A stretch of DNA of 64,000 bases, taken from Candidatus Omnitrophota bacterium. GTDB lineage: Bacteria; Omnitrophota; Gorgyraeia; VGKH01. The DNA is taken from positions 474,850 to 538,849 of the forward strand of contig JAKLEP010000001.1 of the NCBI GenBank assembly GCA_022703055.1, in the 5' to 3' direction. The position numbers and the translations under genes were made by a program. Shown in pieces: positions 1 to 50,719 of the stretch. Position 1 is the stretch's first letter. The number at the start of each line of letters is the position of its first letter. The notes below the pieces were generated by a model. That model had not been told where the DNA came from, did no database searches, and saw nothing but the letters and a program-made list of their open reading frames with translations.

Positions 1-258
1 GATGAGATTGCTCAAGAAGAATTTGAAAAGTTTTTGGTTGACCAAGGCGTGCCTCCAGAACAATATTATGAAGTTAGAGAGTTTTTTAAGTCATATCTTA
101 TTGATGAAGCTTTTAGAGTAGCCATAAATCAAAAAGAATTTAATAAATTCGCATCAAACCCTGTAATGATGGAAATTTTTCGTAAACTCGGACGCGAAAA
201 GATCCAAAATGTATCTGAATACATTAAAGACAATGTAATACTTAATATATTTAGTTAA
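1..258 (+). CDS. C-terminal fragment of an ORF continuing upstream of the window; possibly the R subunit of the adjacent type I R-M system
   Basis: Frame 1 is open from base 1 to TAA 256-258, which ends 2 nt before the methyltransferase start. Function is guessed from adjacency only; no catalytic motif is visible. Confidence 0.35.
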   Translation, partial: DEIAQEEFEKFLVDQGVPPEQYYEVREFFKSYLIDEAFRVAINQKEFNKFASNPVMMEIFRKLGREKIQNVSEYIKDNVILNIFS

Positions 259-260
259 AA

Positions 261-2240
261 ATGTTAAACGCAGAAACCAAACGAAAAATTGATGGCTTAC
301 GTGATACTTTAGTTGGCAAGATACCTGTGCCAACTGAGCAGGTTAAATTGATTACCCTTGGGCTTATTTACAAGTTTATGAGCGATATAGACCAGGAAAA
401 TAAAGAGCTAGGCGGCAAGTCGTTTTTTGCTGGAGAATACGAACAATACGCTTGGCATAAATTGATGGACAGGTCGCTTTCAAGCTATGAAAGGGTAGCA
501 ATATACTCGGAGGGCCTAGAAAAAATGGCTCTTAATCCTAATATCCCACAGCTTTTTAGAGATATTTTTAAAGGTGCATTTCTTCCCTTTAGGGATCCTG
601 CTACAGTAGATTTATTTTTGCGTGGCATTAACGATTTCCATTATGAACATAGCGAAGATTTAGGTGATGCCTTTGAATACCTAATTTCAATAATGGGTAC
701 ACAAGGCGAAGCAGGACAGTTTAGGACACCTCGCCATATTATTGACTTTATCGTAAAGGCCGTTGATCCACGAAAAACTGATACTGTTTTAGATCCTGCC
801 TGCGGCACAGCCGGATTCTTAATCTCTGCCTACAAACACATCCTTGAGCAAAACATGGATCCTCAATCAAAGAGGCCAGGTTCAGCTCTTACAACTGCAG
901 AAAGAAATAAATTAAGTAAAAATTTTGTTGGTTATGATATTTCTCACGATATGGTACGACTTTCTTTGGTAAATATGTACCTACATCAATTCGGAGATCC
1001 TAAAATTTACGAATACGATACGCTTACCAGCTTAGATCACTGGGAAGATAATTTCGATTGCATTTTAACCAATCCTCCTTTTATGACACCGAAGGGAGGA
1101 ATTAGACCGCACAAGAGGTTTGCTGTTAAGGCAAAGAAATCAGAAGTTTTATTTGTGGATTATGTTTTAGAGCATTTAAACAAAAGTTGTCGCGCTGGTA
1201 TCATTGTTCCTGAAGGAATAATTGAAAATGACGCTACAGCATACATCAGTTTAAGAAAAACCATGATCGATAGTAATTTTTTATATGCTATTATTTCCTT
1301 ACCCGTTGGGACATTTCAGCCGTATAGTGCAAACATAAAAACAAGTATTTTATTCTTTGACCGAATGTTGGCCGGTAGTACTAATACGTTATTGCATTTG
1401 AAAGTCGATCATGATGGGTTCGATTTAGGCAAAAATAGAAATCCTATTCAAGAAAATGACTTACCATTTATTCTTAGCGTTATAAAAAAATTTCAAAGCG
1501 ATATAGAAAGTAGACAATCGATAATAATACCTAAGCACCCCAAAGTTACTTTAATTGACAAAAATAAGATTAGAGAAAGAAATGATTATTCTTTAATGCT
1601 TAGGTATTATTTATTAAAAAAGCCTCAAAAAATTTCTGGCCAATGTGAAATGTTAGAGCTTGGCCAATTGTTCGACGTCAAAAAAGGAAGTTTACAGAGT
1701 TCTAAAAATACAGATGGCGAATACGATTTCATAACAGCATCAGAAACATGGAAAAAACATAATACCTATACACATGATTGTGAGGCTTTGCTTTTTGCAA
1801 TGGGTGCTTCAGGGTCTTTAGGAAGGACACATTATGTAAAAGGAAAATTTATTGCAAGCGATCTTTGTTTCATCTTGACTCCCAAAAAAGATTCCGATAG
1901 ACAAATTAATTTTAAGTTTTATTTCAAATATTTTACTCTACTGAGAGAAAAAGTAGTAAATGATATTGTTAAAGGTGCAGCAAAGAAAGCGATTAGTGCT
2001 AAGAATTTCAAAAAACATAAAGTACCATATCTCCCAATAGATACTCAAGAAAAAATTGTTAAAGAAATAGAGGATTTAGAGAATAAGATTAATAATGAAC
2101 AGGAAATAATAAATCGTCATTTAAATAGTATAGAAAGCTACAAAAATGACATCGAGAGGAAAATATTATCATCCTGGCAAATCGACCCCGGACCTTTTCC
2201 AGTTAAGAATGCTAGTAAGAAGATGGGTATTATAAATTAA
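261..2240 (+). CDS. hsdM: Type I R-M N6-adenine DNA methyltransferase (HsdM-like) fused to one HsdS-like target recognition domain plus helical spacer
   Basis: 659 aa. It has an HsdM-type N-terminus, GQFRTPRHII, motif I LDPACGTAGFL and motif IV TNPPF. The C-terminal ~190 aa (LELGQLFDVKKGS...ASDLCFILTPKK...IDTQEKIVKEIEDLENKI) resembles one HsdS TRD plus the conserved coiled-coil region. Confidence 0.85.
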   Translation: MLNAETKRKIDGLRDTLVGKIPVPTEQVKLITLGLIYKFMSDIDQENKELGGKSFFAGEYEQYAWHKLMDRSLSSYERVAIYSEGLEKMALNPNIPQLFRDIFKGAFLPFRDPATVDLFLRGINDFHYEHSEDLGDAFEYLISIMGTQGEAGQFRTPRHIIDFIVKAVDPRKTDTVLDPACGTAGFLISAYKHILEQNMDPQSKRPGSALTTAERNKLSKNFVGYDISHDMVRLSLVNMYLHQFGDPKIYEYDTLTSLDHWEDNFDCILTNPPFMTPKGGIRPHKRFAVKAKKSEVLFVDYVLEHLNKSCRAGIIVPEGIIENDATAYISLRKTMIDSNFLYAIISLPVGTFQPYSANIKTSILFFDRMLAGSTNTLLHLKVDHDGFDLGKNRNPIQENDLPFILSVIKKFQSDIESRQSIIIPKHPKVTLIDKNKIRERNDYSLMLRYYLLKKPQKISGQCEMLELGQLFDVKKGSLQSSKNTDGEYDFITASETWKKHNTYTHDCEALLFAMGASGSLGRTHYVKGKFIASDLCFILTPKKDSDRQINFKFYFKYFTLLREKVVNDIVKGAAKKAISAKNFKKHKVPYLPIDTQEKIVKEIEDLENKINNEQEIINRHLNSIESYKNDIERKILSSWQIDPGPFPVKNASKKMGIIN

Positions 2241-2290: not shown

Positions 2291-2464
2291 ATGAGTGGGG
2301 ATAGATTAGAAAAGCATAGAAAAGCAGAAAAAAGAGAAAATCCTAATGCTTTCTATGATTGGTTAAAAACTAATTGTCGTAAAGCTGTTCCTCATGAAGA
2401 GTTGAAAAGCCTGCCGGAAGAAAAGAAAAAAATCATAGAAGCAATCGTTTTAAAAAATTCTTAA
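2291..2464 (+). CDS. Small hypothetical protein (57 aa), candidate partner of the downstream PIN-PilZ protein
   Basis: ATG 2291 is preceded by GGGGGAGG (2280-2287). TAA 2462-2464 lies 3 nt before the next start. The ORF is below the ORF-track size cutoff. It translates as MSGDRLEKHRKAEKRENPNAFYDWLKTNCRKAVPHEELKSLPEEKKKIIEAIVLKNS. Confidence 0.45.
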   Translation: MSGDRLEKHRKAEKRENPNAFYDWLKTNCRKAVPHEELKSLPEEKKKIIEAIVLKNS

Positions 2465-2467
2465 TGA

Positions 2468-3331
2468 ATGATAATTGATTGCTTGCTTGATACAAATTCA
2501 ATTATAAAATTATATGTAGATATGAGGGGATCTGAAGTAGTAAGGCATCTCTACCAAAATCCTGCTGTACTTATCAATATTGCAAACACTCAAGTAGTTG
2601 AGGTTATCTCTCTTTTTTATAAGTTTAGAAGAGAAGGTGTATTTTCTAGCGATGAAGAAAGAACTAAATATGTCGATACTTTTTTAAAGGATATCTCTGA
2701 TAAAAAAATTGAAGTATATGATTTTGCAGATGAACACATTAAAGATTTTGAAGTATATGAAAAAATAACCAACATAAAACCTCCTTTTAAAAATCCAATT
2801 CGTCCTAAACAAGTTTTTATTCATAAATGGAATGCTTTTTTTAAAGAAGTAAAAGAGCCCGCAGACGGCATTGATACAATTATGCTATTAATAATGAGAG
2901 AAATGCATTTAATGACTCAAAAAGAAGCTTTTATTTTTTCTTCTGATGGACATGTTAAGAAAGTTGCTGAAGCTTTAGGTTTAAAAATTATAGACCCAGA
3001 ATCAAAGTCTTTGAGAGAATTGCCAGAAGAGTTATTGCGTTTTAGAAACAAAAGAGAAAATATTAATTTAAGAGCAATTTGTATAGATTGTGAAAGTTCA
3101 CTCCAACTAAATACATCCAGAGCAGTAAATATTTGTAAAGGTGGTTTATGCCTCGAAACAAGAAATTTATTAACAGTTGGTAAAAGATTAGATATTAGAA
3201 GACTAGAGTCTTATGATGGCTCAAAAACTATTGAAAATATTCCTTCGACTATTGTTTGGTATGATCAGCAAAAACAACAAGCAGGCTTAAAATTTCTGAA
3301 CGATTTTGATCATTCCGTTTTTCTTTCATAA
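2468..3331 (+). CDS. PIN-like nuclease domain fused to a C-terminal PilZ-like domain
   Basis: 287 aa. The PIN-type acidic residues fall in the expected contexts: D8 (LLDTN), E45 (QVVEVIS), D136 (GIDTIML) and D160 (FSSDGH). The C-terminus has RFRNKRENINLR, then 25 aa later NICKGGLCL, matching PilZ (D/N)xSxxG with S to C. The RxxxR motif is degenerate. Confidence 0.55.
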   Translation: MIIDCLLDTNSIIKLYVDMRGSEVVRHLYQNPAVLINIANTQVVEVISLFYKFRREGVFSSDEERTKYVDTFLKDISDKKIEVYDFADEHIKDFEVYEKITNIKPPFKNPIRPKQVFIHKWNAFFKEVKEPADGIDTIMLLIMREMHLMTQKEAFIFSSDGHVKKVAEALGLKIIDPESKSLRELPEELLRFRNKRENINLRAICIDCESSLQLNTSRAVNICKGGLCLETRNLLTVGKRLDIRRLESYDGSKTIENIPSTIVWYDQQKQQAGLKFLNDFDHSVFLS

Positions 3332-3368
3332 AAAAACTCAAAACAAAGAGACGGTCATATTTAATTTT

Positions 3369-3400
3369 TAGGGACGTTCCCCGAGTTGAACTTGAGGGAC
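3369..3400. repeat. Left copy of a 32-bp direct repeat bracketing the 3437-4045 gene
   Basis: TAGGGACGTTCCCCGAGTTGAACTTGAGGGAC matches 4057-4088 at 29 of 32 positions. It is followed by a small hairpin, AGGGAC-ctt-GTCCCT (3395-3409). Confidence 0.8.
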
Positions 3401-3436
3401 CTTGTCCCTATATGATTTGCGCACTAAATTTGTCAG

Positions 3437-4045
3437 ATGAAAAACATCAATATAAATATTATAAATACTGCTTGTAAGACAGGAAAATGGGATCTCGGTA
3501 ATGAAGTTTTATATTCCTTATGTAGAGAATACCCCTTTCATAAAAAAGACGGCGAAATTATTGCGAAGGTTTGGTTAATAGGAAGATCATACGCCGCTTC
3601 TATAGAACGTAGAAAAAATGCTAAGAGCAATAACGAAGAATTTTACGAATCAGAAGTTGTTCCAGCTATTAAAAATTCGAATATTGATTCCTGGCTATCC
3701 ATTACTTCTAAATTGCAAATTCCTGGAAGTGAAGAATCAGTTCTTGTTCACAAGAAACTAATGGATTTGTTTGCCTCGATATCTGGTCATAATAATAGGT
3801 CATTAGCGTCAAAGTATCTTCATTTTCACCAGCCAAAAGTATTTTTTATCTATGACAGCAGAGCAAGAAACGCCATTACAGAATATTGTCCTAAACTAAA
3901 CAAGATTGAAGATATCAATACTAAAGAATTTGATAAAGAGTATAAGGATTTTGTGAGAAAGTGCGTTTGGCTTAGGGGCCATATTAAGTCACTTTACGGA
4001 TTATCTCTTAAACCAAGAGAAATAGATAATTTCTTGTTAGGATAG
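3437..4045 (+). CDS. Hypothetical protein (202 aa), orphan gene between direct repeats
   Basis: The ORF is intact and AT-rich like the R-M islet. I cannot name a family with confidence. Motifs KVWLIGRSYAASIERR and ASKYLHFHQPKVFFIYDSRA are noted. Confidence 0.6.
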   Translation: MKNININIINTACKTGKWDLGNEVLYSLCREYPFHKKDGEIIAKVWLIGRSYAASIERRKNAKSNNEEFYESEVVPAIKNSNIDSWLSITSKLQIPGSEESVLVHKKLMDLFASISGHNNRSLASKYLHFHQPKVFFIYDSRARNAITEYCPKLNKIEDINTKEFDKEYKDFVRKCVWLRGHIKSLYGLSLKPREIDNFLLG

Positions 4046-4056
4046 AGTGATTAATC

Positions 4057-4088
4057 TAGGGACATTCCCCAAGTTGAACTTGAGGGCC
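4057..4088. repeat. Right copy of the 32-bp direct repeat
   Basis: TAGGGACATTCCCCAAGTTGAACTTGAGGGCC contains the 13-bp palindrome CAAGTTgAACTTG. It is followed by CCG-ctt-CGG plus a T-run (4090-4105). Confidence 0.8.
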
Positions 4089-4120
4089 CCCGCTTCGGAT
4101 TTTTGATGGAATTGAAAAAG

Positions 4121-4266
4121 ATCCCTCGCGCCTTTTGGCACTTCCTTCGCGTTGCTCAGGACTGTTCGAAGGACACTGAGCAAAGCGAACGTGCGGGATT
4201 CAATTCGCACTGACAACTTATGTTCACTATCGTTCCATAAGTTGTGTGCTCATTGAAGGAGAAAAA
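4121..4266 (+). promoter_or_regulatory. Conserved structured 5' leader, copy 1
   Basis: Boxes CCCTCGC (4123-4129) and CGGGATT (4194-4200) enclose a variable hairpin (4146-4189). A conserved hairpin follows, ACAACTTATG 4213-4222 / CATAAGTTGT 4236-4245, then GTGCTCATT, SD GAAGGAG and ATG 4267. Confidence 0.7.
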
Positions 4267-5013
4267 ATGAAAAAAATAGTCTATATTATTTCTGTTTTGT
4301 TGATTTTTGCAGCCGCTCAAGCGTTTGCGGAGATTCCGGGAAAAGTGCCAAGTTTGACAACATCAAAACAAAAGAGGTTGCAGAGTAGCGTTGTAAGTTC
4401 TGTCCAAGAGAAAGAGGAACACCCCGGTGTGCCGGCAGTCCCGTTTAATCTGCATGCCACTGTCCGCAGCAGTAAACAGATTGACCTTGCCTGGGGTTAT
4501 GGTAGATCAACCGAAGATGGTTTCGTGCTGGAGCGGCGTACAGAGACGGAAGGCGAGTACAAAGTCGTGGCTGCCATTTCTCAGGGAAGCCTGCGCTATG
4601 AAGATCTCCGGGTATATCCGAATACGACGTATCTGTATCGCGTCCGCGCATTTAATCGCGATGGGTACTCTGAAGCCAGTGCGGAAATTCAGGCTACTAC
4701 CCCGCCTCAGTTATTGCCATCAGCGCCGAATAACGTCAGTGCCCAGATCATCGAGGGTGTGACCAATGATGAATGTAAAGGCCCGCATGTTCTGATACAG
4801 TGGTATGATACTTCCAATAATGAAGACGGATTCAAAGTTGAACGCAAACGAGAAGGCGAGGGAGTATTTACTGAAATCGGCAGAGCCAAGAGGAATGAAA
4901 AAGCCCTGATACCGTCTGGTTGCGCGGTTTGGGGGACATCTTATTATCGCGTCAAGGCATTCAATAGCTACGGGGATTCAGAGGAATCGCCCATATGCTC
5001 TGCGGTTAGATAA
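4267..5013 (+). CDS. Secreted protein with two fibronectin type III domains
   Basis: Signal peptide MKKIVYIISVLLIFAAAQAFA. Two FN3-like units are present (...IDLAWGY...DGFVLERR...YLYRVRAFNRDGYSE and ...IQWYD...DGFKVERK...YYRVKAFNSYGDSE). I chose ATG 4267 with an SD rather than the track GTG 4246, which lies inside the conserved leader. Confidence 0.75.
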   Translation: MKKIVYIISVLLIFAAAQAFAEIPGKVPSLTTSKQKRLQSSVVSSVQEKEEHPGVPAVPFNLHATVRSSKQIDLAWGYGRSTEDGFVLERRTETEGEYKVVAAISQGSLRYEDLRVYPNTTYLYRVRAFNRDGYSEASAEIQATTPPQLLPSAPNNVSAQIIEGVTNDECKGPHVLIQWYDTSNNEDGFKVERKREGEGVFTEIGRAKRNEKALIPSGCAVWGTSYYRVKAFNSYGDSEESPICSAVR

Positions 5014-5030: not shown

Positions 5031-5071
5031 GGGACGTTGCCGCCGAAAGTTAAAATCATCGGCAACGTCCC
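5031..5071. repeat. Inverted repeat of the GGGACGTTGCC family
   Basis: GGGACGTTGCCG (5031-5042) and CGGCAACGTCCC (5060-5071) form 12-bp perfect arms with a 17-nt loop. The same arm sequence recurs at 10773-10815. Confidence 0.8.
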
Positions 5072-5084
5072 CAGAAATAAATTT

Positions 5085-6338
5085 ATGACACATAAAATTA
5101 CAAATACCAATAATCATCCGCTGGACAATATTGTCCCGGAGAGGACTTTTTACGGCCTGGGGATAGCCCCGAAGATTCTTGATATCCTTGGGCATATAAA
5201 ATTCAAGGTTCCCACACCCATCCAGTTTAAGGCCATACCCCTGGCGCTTGAAGGTAAAGATGTTATCGGGATCGCCCAGACCGGGACCGGCAAGACTCAC
5301 GCCTTTGCCATTCCCATGATTCAGCGCCTGGCGCAAAGAAAAGGTGTGGGCCTGGTCTTGGCGCCTACGCGCGAATTGGCGATTCAGATCGACGAGGCTT
5401 TTATGAAAATGGCTCCTGCCTTCGGCATGAAGACAGCTTGTCTTATCGGCGGAGCTCCGATGGATGGTCAACTGCAGGCGCTGCGAAAAAATCCGCGTAT
5501 CGTTATTGCCACTCCGGGCAGGCTGATAGATCATATTGGCCGCTGGAATTTTATGCCGGATAGCGTATCGATGCTGGTGCTTGATGAAGCTGACCGCATG
5601 CTGGATATGGGATTTGCCCCGCAGATTGCACAGATCCTTAAGTTCCTTCCCAAAGACCGGCAGACCATGCTTTTTTCCGCCACTATCCCCAAGGAGATTA
5701 TGGAGATCGCCGCTAAGTATATGAAGCTTCCGGTTTCTCTTGAGGTTGCGCCTTCAGGCACGACCGTAGAGCACGTGACCCAGGAATTATTCATCGTCAA
5801 AAGAGAAGCCAAGATACGGCTTCTGGGAAAATTGCTGGCGCAATATCACGGCTCAGTCCTTTTGTTTAGCCGCACCAAGCATAATGCCCGCAATATCATG
5901 ATGGCCATACGCAAAATGGGATACAGCGCCGCAGAGATGCATTCTAACCGTTCGCTCGGACAGCGCCGCGAAGCGCTTGAGGGTTTTAAATCAGGAAGAT
6001 ACAAGGTGCTGGTGGCTACAGACATTGCATCACGGGGCATTGATGTGATCGGAATCGAGCTGGTAATTAATTATGACCTTCCGGAAGACTCGGAAAATTA
6101 TGTGCATAGGATCGGGCGCACGGCCAGGGCCGGCAGCCAGGGGCATGCGATTTCTTTTGCCACTCCTGAGCAGAGCCGCGATGTCCGGGCGATTGAGAAG
6201 CTTATCCGGCTGACGCTTACCGTCTCAAAACATCCGGATATACCTTCTGAGAAATTTGATGAATCTGCGCGGGCGAGGCCACGCAGGGATTTCAAGAGGT
6301 TTCACGGACCGAGACGGAATAAATTCCGTCCGCGTTAA
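5085..6338 (+). CDS. DEAD-box ATP-dependent RNA helicase (RhlE-like) with a basic C-terminal tail
   Basis: Q-motif region TPIQ, AQTGTGKT, PTRELA, VLDEADRMLDMGF, SAT, HRIGRTARAG, and an Arg/Lys-rich tail. The start is uncertain. I prefer ATG 5085 because the track TTG 5037 sits inside the palindrome. Confidence 0.9.
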   Translation: MTHKITNTNNHPLDNIVPERTFYGLGIAPKILDILGHIKFKVPTPIQFKAIPLALEGKDVIGIAQTGTGKTHAFAIPMIQRLAQRKGVGLVLAPTRELAIQIDEAFMKMAPAFGMKTACLIGGAPMDGQLQALRKNPRIVIATPGRLIDHIGRWNFMPDSVSMLVLDEADRMLDMGFAPQIAQILKFLPKDRQTMLFSATIPKEIMEIAAKYMKLPVSLEVAPSGTTVEHVTQELFIVKREAKIRLLGKLLAQYHGSVLLFSRTKHNARNIMMAIRKMGYSAAEMHSNRSLGQRREALEGFKSGRYKVLVATDIASRGIDVIGIELVINYDLPEDSENYVHRIGRTARAGSQGHAISFATPEQSRDVRAIEKLIRLTLTVSKHPDIPSEKFDESARARPRRDFKRFHGPRRNKFRPR

Positions 6339-6400: not shown

Positions 6401-6427
6401 TTGCCAATTAAGTATTTGTGGTATAAT
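6401..6427 (+). promoter_or_regulatory. Candidate promoter with extended -10, driving leader copy 2
   Basis: TTGCCA 6401-6406, 15-nt spacer, TGgTATAAT 6419-6427. Confidence 0.45.
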
Positions 6428-6454
6428 AAGTTTTGAAGGCCCCTCGCCTTTTTA

Positions 6455-6620
6455 GGATTGAAGAGGAATTTTAGGGATAAGTAACTTAATTGATTTTTGT
6501 CCCTCGCCTAAGCACTTGTCAATTTCTCCGAAATTGACTGCGTAGGCTCGGGATTAATTCGCACTGACAACTTATGTTCGCTAGCGCTCCATAAGTTGTG
6601 TGCTCATTAAGGAGGGTGAT
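6455..6620 (+). promoter_or_regulatory. Conserved structured 5' leader, copy 2
   Basis: GGATTGAAGAGG, then GGGATAAGTAACTTAATTGATT. Boxes CCCTCGCC 6501-6508 and GGCTCGGGATT 6545-6555 enclose hairpin 6518-6538. The conserved hairpin is ACAACTTATG 6567-6576 / CATAAGTTGT 6590-6599, followed by GTGCTCATT, SD AAGGAGG and ATG 6621. Confidence 0.7.
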
Positions 6621-7436
6621 ATGAAAAAGGTTTTTGTTTTGATGATGGTGTTTTATGTCCTATCGGTTCAAGCAGCCAGCGCAGAGGATCGCTTGATGCA
6701 GAAACTGAAGACGGTAGACTGGACGAAAAAGAACCAGCCAGCCGAGCAGGCGCAAGAAAACCGGCCGGTTTCCAAAGCCCGCCAGGTGTCGAAGGCTACC
6801 GTGATCGATGTCCGCAACATAGCCGTCCCCGTCCCGCAACCGGGCGCGAACCAGGGAAACATCATTAGTTTCAAGACAGCATCCCCATCAGAGCCGGCGG
6901 CGAATTTGGTCAGTCTTGATTCATCCCAGCTTAAAGATATCTTAAGCGATTCCGGACTGCAGTTTACGCCGTCAAATCTTTATATGAGGCTAAGCCCGAA
7001 ACAGATATCCGTTTCCGGCAAAGGTTATCTTCATCCCTATAAGCCTTATATCGTCGTCCCTAGTTTCATGCTCTTTGATGAGTTCTACACGGGTAAAGAT
7101 TCCTCAGACGGGATACACGTGGTTTTGAAGGAAGCGGGGACCTATGTCCTTGATTTTCTTATCGAGATTGTAGATGGCTATCCGGTCGGACAGGTATATC
7201 CTTGTAAGGTCTTAAAAAGCCTTAGTTCAACGCTTCAAACCGTCAATATTTCTAAAGTTGACGGGCCTCAGCATATTCTCGTCGTTGTCAATTACGACGG
7301 AACCGCCTGGAGCAGTTCCCTTTCAGCTACAGGGGCCAATTTAAATCAACTATACGGCATTCATCTTGATAAACCCGAAGGAAGCTATTATGAGACCAAG
7401 TTTAAGTTTTATCAACTCGACGTCACCAAGATGTAG
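6621..7436 (+). CDS. Secreted hypothetical protein (271 aa)
   Basis: Signal peptide MKKVFVLMMVFYVLSVQAASA, a strong SD, and no recognisable domain. Confidence 0.7.
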   Translation: MKKVFVLMMVFYVLSVQAASAEDRLMQKLKTVDWTKKNQPAEQAQENRPVSKARQVSKATVIDVRNIAVPVPQPGANQGNIISFKTASPSEPAANLVSLDSSQLKDILSDSGLQFTPSNLYMRLSPKQISVSGKGYLHPYKPYIVVPSFMLFDEFYTGKDSSDGIHVVLKEAGTYVLDFLIEIVDGYPVGQVYPCKVLKSLSSTLQTVNISKVDGPQHILVVVNYDGTAWSSSLSATGANLNQLYGIHLDKPEGSYYETKFKFYQLDVTKM

Positions 7437-7471
7437 GCCCATTAGCCAGTTTAAGCCAGGGAGTTTTTAGT

Positions 7472-7619
7472 GTTGAAGAGTAATTTGGGGAATAAGTAAC
7501 TTAATTAATTGTTTTCCCTCGCCCGCCAATGCAGCAATGGCGGACTCGGGATTAATTCGGGCATACAACTTACGTCAGCTTCGCTTCCGTAAGTTGTGTT
7601 CTCATTAAGAAAGGACAAA
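7472..7619 (+). promoter_or_regulatory. Conserved structured 5' leader, copy 3
   Basis: GTTGAAGAG, then GGAATAAGTAACTTAATTAATT. Boxes CCCTCGCC 7516-7523 and CTCGGGATT 7545-7553 enclose hairpin 7523-7543. The conserved hairpin carries a compensatory change: ACAACTTACG 7565-7574 / CGTAAGTTGT 7588-7597. GTTCTCATT and ATG 7620 follow. Confidence 0.7.
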
Positions 7620-8048
7620 ATGGCAAAACTGTTTAGACGAAAACGCGCTGTAGCGCCGGTTGCGGCTGATGTGGATATCGCCGGCTTAATGGATAAGATT
7701 CAAAGCCAGCTGGATTCTCTGGAAAGAAAACTGGATACCTTGATCAGCCAATCATCCGGCCGGAGCCAAGATCGGCCTTTTAGGGGAAGATCCTTTGGCG
7801 GCCGTTCTTTTGGCCATGACAGAGGAAGGCGGGATGATCGTTCACGGGAAAGAATTCTTACCAAGGTGATTTGCGCCGAATGCGGCCAAGAATGCGAAGT
7901 CCCATTCAAGCCCACTGCAGACCGCCCGGTATACTGCAGGGAATGTTTCGCCAAGCGTAAAGGCGGCGGTGGCGGCTCTGATAGTTCCGTCCAGGAACAG
8001 GGAGATTTTAAACTAAAAACGAAATCGTTTTCGCGCCGGAGAAAATAA
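7620..8048 (+). CDS. Arg/Gly-rich zinc-ribbon protein (142 aa)
   Basis: The protein starts MAKLFRRKR and has a predicted helical segment. An RG-rich stretch RPFRGRSFGGRSFGHDRGRRDDRSRER follows. The four-Cys ribbon is CAECGQECEVPFKPTADRPVYCRECF. It is a paralog of 13496-13660. Confidence 0.7.
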   Translation: MAKLFRRKRAVAPVAADVDIAGLMDKIQSQLDSLERKLDTLISQSSGRSQDRPFRGRSFGGRSFGHDRGRRDDRSRERILTKVICAECGQECEVPFKPTADRPVYCRECFAKRKGGGGGSDSSVQEQGDFKLKTKSFSRRRK

Positions 8049-10768: not shown

Positions 10769-10820
10769 TTTTCCGGGACGTTGCCCTAAATTTCAGGAAA
10801 TCGGCAACGTCCCGGAAAAA
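10769..10820. repeat. Inverted repeat of the GGGACGTTGCC family
   Basis: TTTT-CCGGGACGTTGCC (10773-10785), 17-nt loop, GGCAACGTCCCGG (10803-10815)-AAAAA. The arms are 13-bp perfect. Confidence 0.8.
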
Positions 10821-13495: not shown

Positions 13496-13660
13496 ATGAC
13501 AGCATATAATGACGGCGGATTCCGTAAAGATTTCCGCCCAAGAGAAATGTTCAAGGCAGTTTGCGCAGAATGTAATCAGGAATGTGAAGTTCCATTCAAG
13601 CCGACTGAAGGCAAACCCGTTTACTGCAGGGATTGCTATAAAAAGAAAAAAGGATATTAA
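13496..13660 (+). CDS. Small zinc-ribbon protein (54 aa), paralog of the C-terminus of 7620-8048
   Basis: Not in the ORF track. ATG 13496 follows GGGGGTGA and the stop is TAA 13658-13660. The ribbon is CAECNQECEVPFKPTEGKPVYCRDCY. Confidence 0.65.
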   Translation: MTAYNDGGFRKDFRPREMFKAVCAECNQECEVPFKPTEGKPVYCRDCYKKKKGY

Positions 13661-13694
13661 GTTTAGATAGATTAATATCTAGTTTGAAGATAGG

Positions 13695-13773
13695 GGCCCC
13701 TCACCTTTTTAGAATTCAAATAGTTTTTAATTTGAGTTTTAAAGATTATTGAATAAATAAAAGGTGAGGGGCC
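13695..13773. repeat. Long-loop inverted repeat; the left arm belongs to the GGCCCCTCRCCTTTTTAG repeat
   Basis: GGCCCCTCACCTTTT (13695-13709) pairs perfectly with AAAAGGTGAGGGGCC (13759-13773). The left arm plus flank resembles 6438-6463. Confidence 0.6.
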
Positions 13774-13791
13774 TATCGATTCCTCTTTGTC

Positions 13792-32485: not shown

Positions 32486-32563
32486 TAAAACAATCGTAAT
32501 TAAACCTAATGGGTCCAGAAATGAATATTTTTTTCTGGAGGTTAAAATTTTGAGATGGTCGGG

Positions 32564-32601
32564 CCGCCATCTGCTAAAAAAGCAGATGGCGGTTTTATTT
32601 T
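32564..32601 (+). terminator. Strong rho-independent terminator
   Basis: 12-bp perfect stem CCGCCATCTGCT (32564-32575) / AGCAGATGGCGG (32581-32592), loop AAAAA, then TTTTATTTT. Confidence 0.8.
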
Positions 32602-37968: not shown

Positions 37969-37973
37969 AATAG

Positions 37974-38098
37974 CTACCTTCGGGAGAGGGGTGAAATTCC
38001 CGACTGGTGGTAAAGTCCACGAGATTCGACCAATCGTCGGATCAGACCAAGTGTAATTCTTGGACCAATAGTCACAGTCTAGATGGGAGAAGGTAAAA
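37974..38098 (+). promoter_or_regulatory. FMN riboswitch (RFN element)
   Basis: P1 is ACCTTC...GAAGGT. Hallmark segments are GGGGTGAAATTCCCGACTGGTGGTAAAGTCCAC, GACCAAGTGTAATTCTTGGACC and AGTCTAGATGGGAGAAGG. It lies directly upstream of ribBA. Confidence 0.9.
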
Positions 38099-38166: not shown

Positions 38167-39381
38167 ATGTCATTTAACACCATTCCAGAAATAATCGAAG
38201 ATTTGATACATGGCCGTATGGTTATAGTCATTGATGACGAAGACCGCGAGAATGAAGGGGATATTATCATGTCCGCTTCTTTTGTTAAACCGGAAGACAT
38301 CAATTTTATGGCTAAAGAGGCGCGAGGTTTGGTCTGTGTTCCCATGGAAGAGGAACGTCTTAGATTCCTGAATCTGCAGCCGATGGTTGACAAATTAGTC
38401 AAAGAACCGAAGAAAGTCAAAGATCCTTACGGAACCGCCTGGATGATGTCAGTAGATGCGGCTACCGGTATCACAACTGGGATTTCCGCTTTTGACCGTT
38501 CAAGGACGATAAAAACTCTGGTTGACCCGAAGGCAAAACCAGAAGATTTGACTAGGCCTGGCCATGTGTTTCCCCTGCAGGCAGTAAAGGGTGGAGTTTT
38601 AGTTCGTGCCGGCCACACCGAAGCCGCAGTTGATTTAATGAAATTGGCAAAGTTGTATCCTGCTGCGGTGATTTGTGAAATCATGAATGAAGATGGTTCG
38701 ATGGCAAGGACTCCGCAGCTTTTGGAATTCGCCAAAAAACACTATCTGAAAATCTGCACCATTGCTAATCTTATCGAGTATCGCAGAAAAACCGAAAAAT
38801 TGGTAAGAAGAGTTACGCAAACAGTACTTCCAACCGAATTCGGAGAATTCAATTTGATTCTTTACGAGTCGGAGATAGAGAATTTGAGTCATTTGGCCTT
38901 GGTGATGGGTGAGATTAAAAAAGACGAGTCTATTTTAGCCAGGGTTCATTCTGGTTGTTTAACTGGCGATGTTTTTGGGTCGCTTCGCTGCGATTGCGGC
39001 AGCCAACTTAAAAAGGCAATGCAGATGATTAATCGCGAAGGCAAAGGAGTAATTTTATATATGAATCAGGAAGGGCGAGGAATCGGATTAAAAAATAAGA
39101 TTTTCGCTTATAACCTTCAGGACAAAGGCATGGATACCGTTGAAGCCAATGAAGCTCTAGGATTTGCCGCGGACTTGCGCGATTATGGAATCGGCGCCCA
39201 GATTCTCGTAGATTTAGGCGTCAATAAAATCAGGCTGATGACTAATAATCCGCGTAAGATTGTTGGTTTAGAAGGTTATGGCCTTGAGGTGGTAGAACGA
39301 GTTCCGCTTAAGATTTCTCCAACTTCAAAAAATGAAAATTATCTAAAAACAAAGAAAGAAAAATTAGGACATATACTATAA
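38167..39381 (+). CDS. ribBA: Bifunctional 3,4-dihydroxy-2-butanone-4-phosphate synthase / GTP cyclohydrolase II
   Basis: [18 protein letters not shown] and CDCG...EGRGIGL. Confidence 0.95.
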
Positions 39382-45386: not shown

Positions 45387-45465
45387 CGGGGAGTGGCTCA
45401 GTTTGGCTTAGAGCGCTTGGTTCGGGACCAAGAGGTCGTGGGTTCAAGTCCCACCTCCCCGACCA
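45387..45465 (+). tRNA. tRNA-Pro (anticodon CGG), CCA encoded
   Basis: Acceptor CGGGGAG/CTCCCCG. D arm GCTC-AGTTTGGCTTA-GAGC. Anticodon arm CTTGG-TTCGGGA-CCAAG with G37. T arm GTGGG-TTCAAGT-CCCAC. Discriminator A plus CCA. Confidence 0.9.
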
Positions 45466-45537
45466 TTTTGCTATTATTTGGTTTTAGGCAAAATGATCCC
45501 GAGCCATCTTGGTAGCTAATGGTAAGTGGCGAGGGGC
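45445..45537 (+). repeat. Copy A of a ~90-bp duplicated block that begins inside the tRNA-Pro T arm
   Basis: CAAGTCCCACCTCCCCGACCAT (45445-45466), then ATGATCCCGAGCCATC..GGTAGCTAATGGTAAGTGGCGAGGGGC (45493-45537). Confidence 0.85.
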
Positions 45538-45615
45538 GGTTTCCCTCGACTCAGATTAATATAAGTGGAGTCTCGGGACTTCGCCGCTAAAAAAGAGAAA
45601 AGCTAAAGCGGCTTG

Positions 45616-45703
45616 CAAGTCCCACCTCCCCGACCATCTGCCATTGGTACTTTGGCGGATGATCCCGAGCCATCAGGGTAGCTAATGGTAAGTGGCGAGG
45701 GGC
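45616..45703 (+). repeat. Copy B of the duplicated block (pseudo tRNA 3' end)
   Basis: There is a perfect 22-nt repeat of the tRNA 3' end at 45616-45637. The second conserved segment follows at 45659-45703, with 2 substitutions. Confidence 0.85.
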
Positions 45704-49231: not shown

Positions 49232-49830
49232 TTCTGGAGACTGTTGTCGTTGGGGCTTATCAGGTGAATTGCTATATTTTAGCGGAAAAAGAAGGTTCGC
49301 AGGCAATAATTATCGATCCCGGAGAAGATTATAATAGGATCAAGAAAGTTATTGATAAACATAAATTAACTCCGAAGATAATTATTAATACTCACGGCCA
49401 TATCGACCATATCGGAGCAAATGATAAATTTGGCTTGCCGGTTTATATTCATAAAGACGATGCTGATTGTATTTCTGATTCTAAAAGAAACATGTCGGCT
49501 TTTTTAGGCTCCCCGTCGTCATTTAATTCTAAAATAAAGACATTAAATGATAAGGATAAGATAGAATTAGGGAAAATAAGCCTTGAAGTTATGCATACGC
49601 CTGGACATACCCCGGGCAGCGTCTGTCTTAAATTTGATGATACCGTATTCACAGGCGATACATTATTTTATGAAGGCATAGGAAGAACAGATTTTCCTTA
49701 CTCAGACCCCGAAAAAATGGCCCAGTCCATAAATAAGTTAATGGGCTTGCCGGACAATATCAAGATCCTCCCGGGACATGGCCAGGCTTCATCAATTGGC
49801 GAAGAGAGAAAAACGAACCCTTTTATCTAA
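49228..49830 (+). CDS. MBL-fold metallo-hydrolase (glyoxalase II-like)
   Basis: THGHIDHIG, HTPGHTPG and TGDTLF. Confidence 0.85.
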   Translation: MILETVVVGAYQVNCYILAEKEGSQAIIIDPGEDYNRIKKVIDKHKLTPKIIINTHGHIDHIGANDKFGLPVYIHKDDADCISDSKRNMSAFLGSPSSFNSKIKTLNDKDKIELGKISLEVMHTPGHTPGSVCLKFDDTVFTGDTLFYEGIGRTDFPYSDPEKMAQSINKLMGLPDNIKILPGHGQASSIGEERKTNPFI

Positions 49831-49831
49831 A

Positions 49832-50719
49832 ATGCAAGAACTATTAGAGAACTTTATTAATTATCTGTCCATCGAGCGCGGTCTGGCCAAGAATACCTTG
49901 GAATCTTACAGACGGGACTTAAATAAATACATCATTTTTATGAAGTCAAAAGGTTTTTCTGACGCTACCAGAATCGATAGGGAGCAGATTAATGCGTTTT
50001 TGTTTTCTTTGAAAGATAAAAGCCTATCGATGAATTCCATAAGCAGGAATTTAGTCGCTATAAAGATGTTCCATCGTTTTTTAGTGAGAGAAGGCCATTC
50101 CAAACAAGATCCGACAAGTTTATTAGAGTCTCCGAAGCTTTGGAAGCGCATCCCCGATGTTTTGTCATCGGATGAGGTAGAAGCGATTATCGAAGCCAGC
50201 TACCCCCGTGATTGGCAGACCATAAGAGACAGAGCGCTTTTGGAATTGATGTATGCCTCCGGAATGCGCGTCTCGGAGGTAGTAAACCTGAAAGTCTCAG
50301 ATCTGAATTTAGATATTGGATTTGTGCGCTGCCTAGGAAAGGGTCAGAAGGAAAGAATCATCCCTATCGGCAAAAGCGCCATTCTTTCAATTCGAAGATA
50401 CCTTGATAAGACCAGGCCGAAGTTAGCCAAAAAAGAAGCTACGCCATTTTTATTCTTAAGCAGGATGGGAAAAAAGATTTCCCGCCAGTCGATCTGGAAG
50501 CTGATAAAACAATACGCGCTTAAAGCTAAAATTAAGAAAGAAATAAAACCGCACACCTTAAGACATTCCTTCGCTACGCATCTTTTGGAAAGAGGCGCTG
50601 ATTTAAGGTCAGTTCAGGAAATGCTGGGTCATTCAGATATTTCAACCACTCAAGTTTATACCCATATAAATAAAGACAGATTAAAATCTATTCATCAAAA
50701 ATTTCATCCCAGGCCTTAG
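49832..50719 (+). CDS. xerD: Site-specific tyrosine recombinase XerD-like
   Basis: YLSIERGLAKNTLESYRRDL, ASGMRVSE, LRHSFATHLLERGADLRSVQEMLGHSDISTTQVYTH. Confidence 0.75.
   Translation: MQELLENFINYLSIERGLAKNTLESYRRDLNKYIIFMKSKGFSDATRIDREQINAFLFSLKDKSLSMNSISRNLVAIKMFHRFLVREGHSKQDPTSLLESPKLWKRIPDVLSSDEVEAIIEASYPRDWQTIRDRALLELMYASGMRVSEVVNLKVSDLNLDIGFVRCLGKGQKERIIPIGKSAILSIRRYLDKTRPKLAKKEATPFLFLSRMGKKISRQSIWKLIKQYALKAKIKKEIKPHTLRHSFATHLLERGADLRSVQEMLGHSDISTTQVYTHINKDRLKSIHQKFHPRP

Follow-up and report, generated by a model that had tools for sequence, protein, structure and literature searches.

How a single gene comes to lie between two nearly identical copies of a short repeat is the question raised by one locus in a 64,000-nucleotide (nt) stretch of DNA from a Candidatus Omnitrophota bacterium (contig JAKLEP010000001.1, positions 474,850 to 538,849), which we refer to as the window. 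The gene in question encodes a protein of 202 amino acids (aa), lies downstream of a pair of genes for 57-aa and 287-aa proteins, and has one repeat copy on either side. An earlier note, made from the sequence without database searches, had regarded it as an orphan of no nameable family in a defence-like neighbourhood, and had proposed either a cassette inserted by site-specific recombination or the duplication of a target or terminator. Our own answer, which we favour only tentatively, is that 3369-4089 is an acquired and now fixed module of a gene plus a 3′ hairpin, probably derived from an array-like donor arrangement.

The repeats and their hairpins

The two copies, TAGGGACGTTCCCCGAGTTGAACTTGAGGGAC (3369-3400) and TAGGGACATTCCCCAAGTTGAACTTGAGGGCC (4057-4088), are identical at 29 of 32 positions. 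When each is taken one base further (3369-3401 and 4057-4089), the identity is 30 of 33, or 91%. Global alignment of the two intergenic regions limited their similarity to these 33 nt, and no match to the repeat arose by chance in 100 dinucleotide shuffles of the window. The 287-aa gene ends at 3331, and the left copy begins 38 nt past this stop; its distance to the ATG at 3437 is 36 nt. The right copy follows the stop codon of the 202-aa gene (last base 4045) at a distance of 11 nt. The repeats, their degree of match and their spacing around the gene are thus as the earlier note had described them, and the inner palindrome that it had seen is present in both copies as the near-palindrome CCCC(G/A)AGTTgAACTTGAGGG (3379-3398 and 4067-4086).

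In the left copy this palindrome forms the centre of a compound stem-loop. The outer stem spans 7 base pairs (bp), the spacers are asymmetric and unpaired, and the inner stem has one mismatch and a loop of 3 nt. Folded as RNA, 3355-3425 has an energy of -23.1 kcal/mol (z = -4.1), and the DNA fold of the left copy gives z = -2.75 on the + strand and z = -2.98 on the - strand. The right copy keeps the inner stem-loop only; it reads CCCCGCTTCGGATTTTT where the left copy goes on as CCTTGTCCCTA. Three positions differ between the copies. At one of them, repeat position 15, G is replaced by A, so that the inner stem there pairs A-T instead of G.T. With regard to a role at gene ends, a terminator scan flagged a site at 3395-3409 with its ATATGATTTG tail, and found two sites in total compared to 6.6 in shuffles. 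Because CCCCCGCTTCGGATTTTT directly follows the inner hairpin of the right copy, the T-run there comes after a second small hairpin, and a proper T-tract is found in neither hairpin. Neither the repeats nor the host leaders described below had a match in Rfam.

The earlier note had also pointed to a core that the repeat has in common with the palindromes at 5031 and 10773. The sequence GGGACGTT is indeed shared, and we consider this weak evidence because it is an 8-mer. The hairpins at those two places (5031-5071 and 10769-10819, the latter also delimited as 10775-10813) have identical arms of 11-12 nt, GGGACGTTGCC and GGCAACGTCCC, around unrelated loops of 17-19 nt. Both occupy the gap from a stop codon to the following start codon, and they could be terminators, operators or structures of a 5′ untranslated region.

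The right-hand junction

The guanine-cytosine (GC) content rises from 0.33 (3751-4050) to 0.44-0.52 beyond 4051, with the shift at the right copy, where the earlier note had placed it. The leader of the gene at 4268, which encodes a protein with an fn3 domain, resembles the leader of the gene at 6622. This similarity begins at 4080 (TTGAGGGCCCC against TTGAAGGCCCC), inside the right repeat. The local alignment starting there scored 14.0, a value reached by 0 of 500 shuffles, and the A-to-C mismatch at repeat position 31 matches the host paralog. From these alignments, the right copy looks like an incoming hairpin that was cut off at a microhomology of 7-10 nt with host DNA. If the right-hand hairpin was truncated in this way, the incoming DNA would already have held two copies of the hairpin.

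As a separate observation, three host genes share a conserved upstream leader of ~170-230 nt: the fn3 gene (leader region 4046-4274), a gene for a 271-aa protein (leader region 6408-6628) and a gene for a zf_Tbcl_2 zinc-finger protein (leader region 7437-7626). A hairpin, ACAACTTATG...CATAAGTTGT, is part of the leader and immediately precedes the ribosome-binding site; the cluster that includes these three genes also has a gene for a DEAD-box helicase. The leader is possibly a cis-regulatory one not described before. An 84-nt stretch of 76% identity is common to two paralogous zf_Tbcl_2 zinc-finger genes (7862-7945 and 13552-13635).

Relatives of the upstream gene pair

The 57-aa and 287-aa genes form a conserved two-gene unit belonging to a small family of ten clusters. 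In three independent relatives (49-65% identity), the pair is followed by a gene for a PEGA protein, by the hrcA-grpE-dnaK operon, or by a 138-aa open reading frame (ORF), and neither the 202-aa gene nor the hairpin follows the pair in loci L148-L152. Because these relatives lack the hairpin, we conclude that it is not an ancestral terminator of the 287-aa gene. On comparison of these sequences, the hairpin and the 202-aa gene appear to have been added together.

Flanking repeats in the gene family

At 69 loci carrying a homolog of the 202-aa gene, we aligned the 300 nt upstream of the homolog to the 300 nt downstream, a comparison in which random flank pairings score at most 13.5. Direct-repeat scores were 61.5 in L146 (132 nt), 53 in L118 and L121 (96 nt), 49.5 in L084, 26.5 in L086, 26 in L105 and 25.5 in the window. 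In two of these loci, L146 and L118, the homolog lies in a true integron cassette array, with eight attC copies per array that are 465-978 bp apart and carry CCTAAC...GTTAGG boxes. Canonical attC sites end 5-30 nt before the start of the homolog in L120, L122, L123 and L135, and L104 and L139 have short attC sites (55-60 nt) on its flanks. The homolog is therefore an integron cassette in 9 of the 69 loci examined. In three more loci, all of them metagenome contigs (L084, L086 and L105), direct repeats of 53-72 nt that are not attC lie around the homolog, and the upstream copy in L086 belongs to a 113-nt imperfect palindrome with GAAC/GTTC ends.

The contexts of the homologs are otherwise unrelated. 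One lies beside GmrSD and IS21 genes in Desulfoferula (L010), another near a gene for an NmeDI-type endonuclease (L014). In a member of the Thermoguttaceae (L012), the homolog stands between etfA and an acyl-CoA dehydrogenase gene, enclosed by inverted arrays of an AGGGATT heptamer that are 31 nt long and 94% complementary (5922-5952 and 6716-6746); the inverted-repeat score there is 26. An apparent flanking repeat in L094 was rejected, since it lies in paralogous coding sequence and does not resemble a feature of a mobile element.

As a control, we scored all other long ORFs of the loci without arrays. Only two reached a flank score of at least 20, and both are neighbours of the homolog in the arrays of L104 and L139. 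Within the window, only 1 other gene of 51 has bracketing direct repeats, and it has them because the regions upstream and downstream of it are paralogous leaders. Since the control ORFs outside cassette arrays show nothing comparable, structured-repeat flanks are a property of the gene family and not of its surroundings.

The 202-aa protein

The exact 202-aa protein is present in a Candidatus Omnitrophica metagenome-assembled genome (MAG; locus tag PHI86_07365) and in at least nine metagenome contigs, the longest of those retrieved being 500 kb, and all are identical across 3301-4300 of the window. The gene is no orphan, in contrast to what had been assumed. At E<=0.001, one search found 2,936 homologous clusters, the closest non-self relatives being 54-60% identical, and a filter-free profile search returned 1,673 clusters at 50% identity, 519 of them with E<=1e-30; we give the family size as at least 1,673 clusters at 50% identity. 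Nearly all matches of the profile search are stand-alone proteins of 200-230 aa, and the named sources of homologs include Thermoguttaceae, Desulfoferula, Rectinemataceae and Pseudomonadota MAGs. Among the many residues that are invariant in an alignment of 45 members are K44, R50, E57-R59, D84, H105, R121, K126-H131, D140, D166 and D197. The invariant Asp140 comes after a conserved SKYLHFHxP...IYD motif.

The AlphaFold2 model of the protein is all-helical, with a predicted local distance difference test (pLDDT) score of 93.8. Its best Foldseek matches in the PDB are 8-oxoguanine glycosylases of the OGG2 type, AGOG, MagIII and MUTYH. Because these fold matches are weak (E 0.4, TM-score 0.48) and there is no sequence-level link, we treat the glycosylase-like fold as a lead and not as a result. 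A precomputed weak match to Pfam PF27257 (HI_0787_N) and faint matches to DUF6308 were the only other family assignments, as local scans of Pfam (including the HhH-GPD models), NCBIfam, PADLOC and PHROGs gave no match to the protein. A sequence search of the PDB, a viral fold search and a phage collection yielded nothing useful for it, a plasmid collection yielded one weak match, and we found nothing useful in the literature on HI_0787 or PF27257.

The low-GC island and other features of the window

The 202-aa gene is the last gene of a low-GC island of ~7.8 kb that lies between a pyruvate kinase gene and the fn3-domain gene, and whose contents include an ORF6N gene, a small GIY-YIG gene and a gene for a 74-aa protein. 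A restriction-modification system stands directly upstream (Table 1), and the neighbourhood is thus defence-like, as had been noted. The small GIY-YIG ORF (84 aa), which lies within the island and upstream of the window, is enclosed by a perfect inverted repeat of 15 nt, GCCCCCACACCAATT and AATTGGTGTGGGGGC (L001:3540-3557 and 3813-3830). A family of palindromic elements of ~80 nt, GGGGCCCCTCACCTTTTTAG...TTTTTAATTTGAG...AAAAGGTGAGGGGCC, has copies at 13694-13774 of the window and at L001:2811-2893, the latter at the island's left edge, beyond the window. The 5′ arm sequence of this family also opens the leader at 6438.

Table 1. Coordinates of the features discussed, in the window unless a locus is named
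Feature	Position	Strand	Remarks
Left copy of the 33-nt direct repeat	3369..3401	+	Repeat family D14
Complete 42-nt compound stem-loop	3369..3410	+	Outer stem TAGGGAC/GTCCCTA; inner CCCCGAGTT-gaa-CTTGAGGG at 3379-3398
202-aa gene	3437..4045	+	GC ~33%; large uncharacterised ~200-aa all-helical family
Right copy of the repeat	4057..4089	+	Inner stem-loop 4067-4086 kept, 3′ outer arm missing
Overlap TTGAGGGCCC, putative junction of low-GC island and host DNA	4080..4089	+	Similarity to left copy ends, similarity to host leader (6433-6470) begins
Host-type leader of the fn3 gene	4090..4267	+	Paralogs upstream of the genes at 6622 and 7620; families D1, D3
Upstream gene pair	2291..3331	+	57-aa gene 2291-2464; 287-aa gene 2468-3331, weak PilZ-type C-terminus
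Restriction-modification genes	1..2240	+	C-terminal end of 838-aa DEAD/ResIII subunit (1-258); 659-aa N6-methylase fused to specificity domain (261-2240)
Non-attC repeat pairs around homologs	L086:354-406, 1107-1160; L105:2916-2971, 3701-3756; L084:117-187, 1116-1187

Elsewhere in the window, the last ~21 nt of a tRNA-Pro(CGG) gene (45387-45465), CAAGTCCCACCTCCCCGACCA, are repeated at 45616-45637, and each copy is followed by one member of a 45-nt direct repeat (45493-45537 and 45659-45703, 96% identical). This region (45387-45703) resembles an att scar left by an integrative element that was small or has been deleted. A flavin mononucleotide (FMN) riboswitch upstream of ribBA (38167-39381) and an nhaA-I RNA motif were also found, both above the Rfam gathering thresholds; their spans are 37972-38098 and 32511-32572.

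Discussion

We prefer, with reservation, to read 3369-4089 as an acquired module that is now fixed. The large family to which its gene belongs commonly moves in the form of single-gene cassettes, in many cases within integrons. The donor DNA would have been array-like, with each successive gene ending in a hairpin of ~42 nt, and a piece consisting of hairpin, gene and hairpin would have come to lie downstream of the 57-aa/287-aa pair, presumably by recombination at a hairpin. The right hairpin would then have been shortened as the island joined host DNA at the 7-10-nt microhomology TTGA(G/A)GG. At present, the hairpins most probably act only as gene-end stem-loops, which at most would serve as terminators or stabilisers of RNA 3′ ends.

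Several results weigh against this course of events. The donor array is hypothetical, because no third copy of the repeat was found in the 20 kb around the gene, in the rest of the window or in the 6.5 kb further upstream, and no other copy of the hairpin among ~150 fetched loci. We identified no recombinase able to act on the hairpin, and the evidence for the microhomology junction is a single overlap of 10 nt. No empty site or single-copy state was found either; all contigs found for the organism are identical across the region, and look-ups of the exact 202-aa and 287-aa proteins gave this arrangement alone. Close relatives of the flanking fn3 protein were sought in GTDB representative genomes, where the best was <=40% identical, and an exact look-up of that protein returned no record. 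Exact-pattern scans of public metagenome and genome contig collections gave no match to the repeat, and since they also missed the source contig, we regard them as uninformative rather than negative.

The bracketing would say nothing about how the 202-aa gene arrived if both copies were members of an ordinary gene-end hairpin family of the host or donor, either terminators or of the repetitive extragenic palindrome (REP) type. We judge this to be unlikely, though it is the main alternative. Both copies do lie 11-38 nt after stop codons, the left hairpin was flagged as terminator-like, and the host has other palindromic families as well as hairpins with a GGGAC...GTCCC stem after other genes (five matches compared to 0.32 expected). 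In addition, the left copy has a borderline similarity (p = 0.05) to a host hairpin in the leader at 6470-6503. A family of this kind would, however, have only two copies, each the closest relative of the other, in the ~70 kb examined, a small part of the genome that leaves room for a low-copy family. The low yield of the terminator scan, the lack of a proper T-tract and the 287-aa homologs that occur without the hairpin also argue against such a family, as does the enrichment of flanking repeats around the 202-aa family and not around neighbouring genes. That the hairpin is instead a degenerate or minimal attC, and the gene an integron cassette, either in an integrase-less cluster of attC sites (CALIN) or inserted in trans, we regard as highly improbable. 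An attC site is an imperfect palindrome of 57-141 bp bounded by RYYYAAC and GTTRRRY, and the GTTRRRY sequence sets the cassette boundaries (PMC3053210). The idea draws on the recurrence of the family as an integron cassette, on the attC-like layout of the left copy, on the short attC sites next to the homologs in L104 and L139, and on GTTGAAC, the only GTTRRRY match in each intergenic region (3385 and 4073). Yet the left element is 42 nt long and shares only 33 nt with the right copy, the ends of the hairpin are TAGGGAC/GTCCCTA, RYYYAAC occurs in neither intergenic region, and GTTGAAC lies in the loop-proximal central palindrome and not at the 3′ end. The layout with unpaired spacers is a generic one, which the right copy is unable to form. 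A set of 21 attC sites aligned well at the R boxes alone (6 pairs by RNAalifold), and attC was therefore sought by rule-based scans. The strict scan found no site in the window or in L001, while recovering those of L118, L120-L123, L135 and L146, and a relaxed scan found none spanning the repeats. No attC array was found in the window. There is no recombinase within 10 kb on either side of the gene. The only tyrosine recombinase among window ORFs of at least 240 aa is XerD (49778-50719), ~45 kb away, which scored 386.8 bits on the XerD model and 162 on the integron-integrase model, where the cut-off is 265. One part of the proposed cassette insertion does stand, in that the gene behaves as a discrete, horizontally moving single-gene module whose homologs are integron cassettes in 9 of 69 loci; the part that calls for a site-specific recombination site is not supported, as the repeats fail the attC definition and no integrase was found nearby.

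We give even less credence, to the point of near dismissal, to the repeats being the attL and attR sites of an element with a phage-type integrase, whether small or accreted, or a long target-site duplication made by a transposase. Such an origin would fit direct repeats that enclose a foreign low-GC segment ending at the GC shift, and an 11-nt near-repeat, TGAGGGGCCCC and TGAGGGCCCCC (10 of 11 identical), does lie at the edges of the 7.8-kb island; its left-edge member belongs to an 80-nt palindromic element of the host, of which it forms the 3′ arm. Neither the 688-bp unit nor the island has an integrase or transposase within it or nearby, the site lacks a tRNA or tmRNA gene, the left edge of the island has no third 33-nt copy, and 3300-4200 contains no terminal inverted repeats. 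Moreover, known target-site duplications are much shorter than 33 nt and more exact than a repeat with 3 mismatches, and the target duplication of the earlier note accordingly finds no support. It is conceivable, but very unlikely, that the 42-nt hairpin is the minimal recombination site of a non-integron cassette system without AAC/GTT boxes. This was proposed because members of the family recur between structured repeats that differ in kind: attC sites, REP-like direct repeats in L084, L086 and L105, heptamer inverted repeats in L012, and the hairpin of the window. The gene might then be mobilised through single-stranded hairpins by an unknown enzyme, possibly aided by its own DNA-glycosylase-like product. 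Readings as a CRISPR-like array, a type III toxin-antitoxin system or a dif/Xer site were rejected, given that there are two copies only, no tandem array and no 11-6-11 dif architecture.

If the hairpins flanking the acquired module are relics of recombination sites, the locus would represent a gene of an integron-cassette family that was fixed outside an integron, in the candidate phylum Omnitrophota, with a non-canonical site. The repeat alone changes little. The more promising lead is the uncharacterised protein family, which sometimes adjoins restriction or defence genes and is a reasonable candidate for tests of a function in phage defence or DNA-base modification.

Comparison with known systems

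The hairpins of the window resemble terminator palindromes or those of the REP and bacterial interspersed mosaic element (BIME) type in being GC-rich stem-loops 11-38 nt past stop codons, and a host hairpin family shares GGGACGTT with them. They differ in that they are not dispersed: both copies lie around one gene, have no T-tract, and are absent after orthologs of the upstream gene. As for the encoded protein, HhH-GPD glycosylases of the OGG2/AGOG type, including M. jannaschii Ogg (3knt) and T. maritima Tm1821 (3n0u), are among the best fold matches of its model. In contrast to these enzymes, no Gly-rich hairpin was identified in the 202-aa protein, and it has no sequence-level match to solved structures.

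Insertion sequences of the IS200/IS605 type and non-autonomous palindrome-associated transposable elements (PATEs) carry a similar subterminal hairpin at each end, the two in direct orientation. The window unit likewise has hairpin sequences of the same orientation near both ends of a short segment. Unlike such elements, it has no TnpA or TnpB gene, its passenger is all-helical and neither HUH nor RuvC-like, and the right hairpin is incomplete.

The remaining comparison is with integron cassettes, in particular those of sedentary chromosomal arrays. Although the window unit has two hairpins, one of them truncated, has no integron integrase or attI, and is situated at the edge of a restriction-modification island in Omnitrophota, it resembles these cassettes in being a compact single ORF with short untranslated flanks, with an imperfect palindrome after the stop codon and a similar element before the start.

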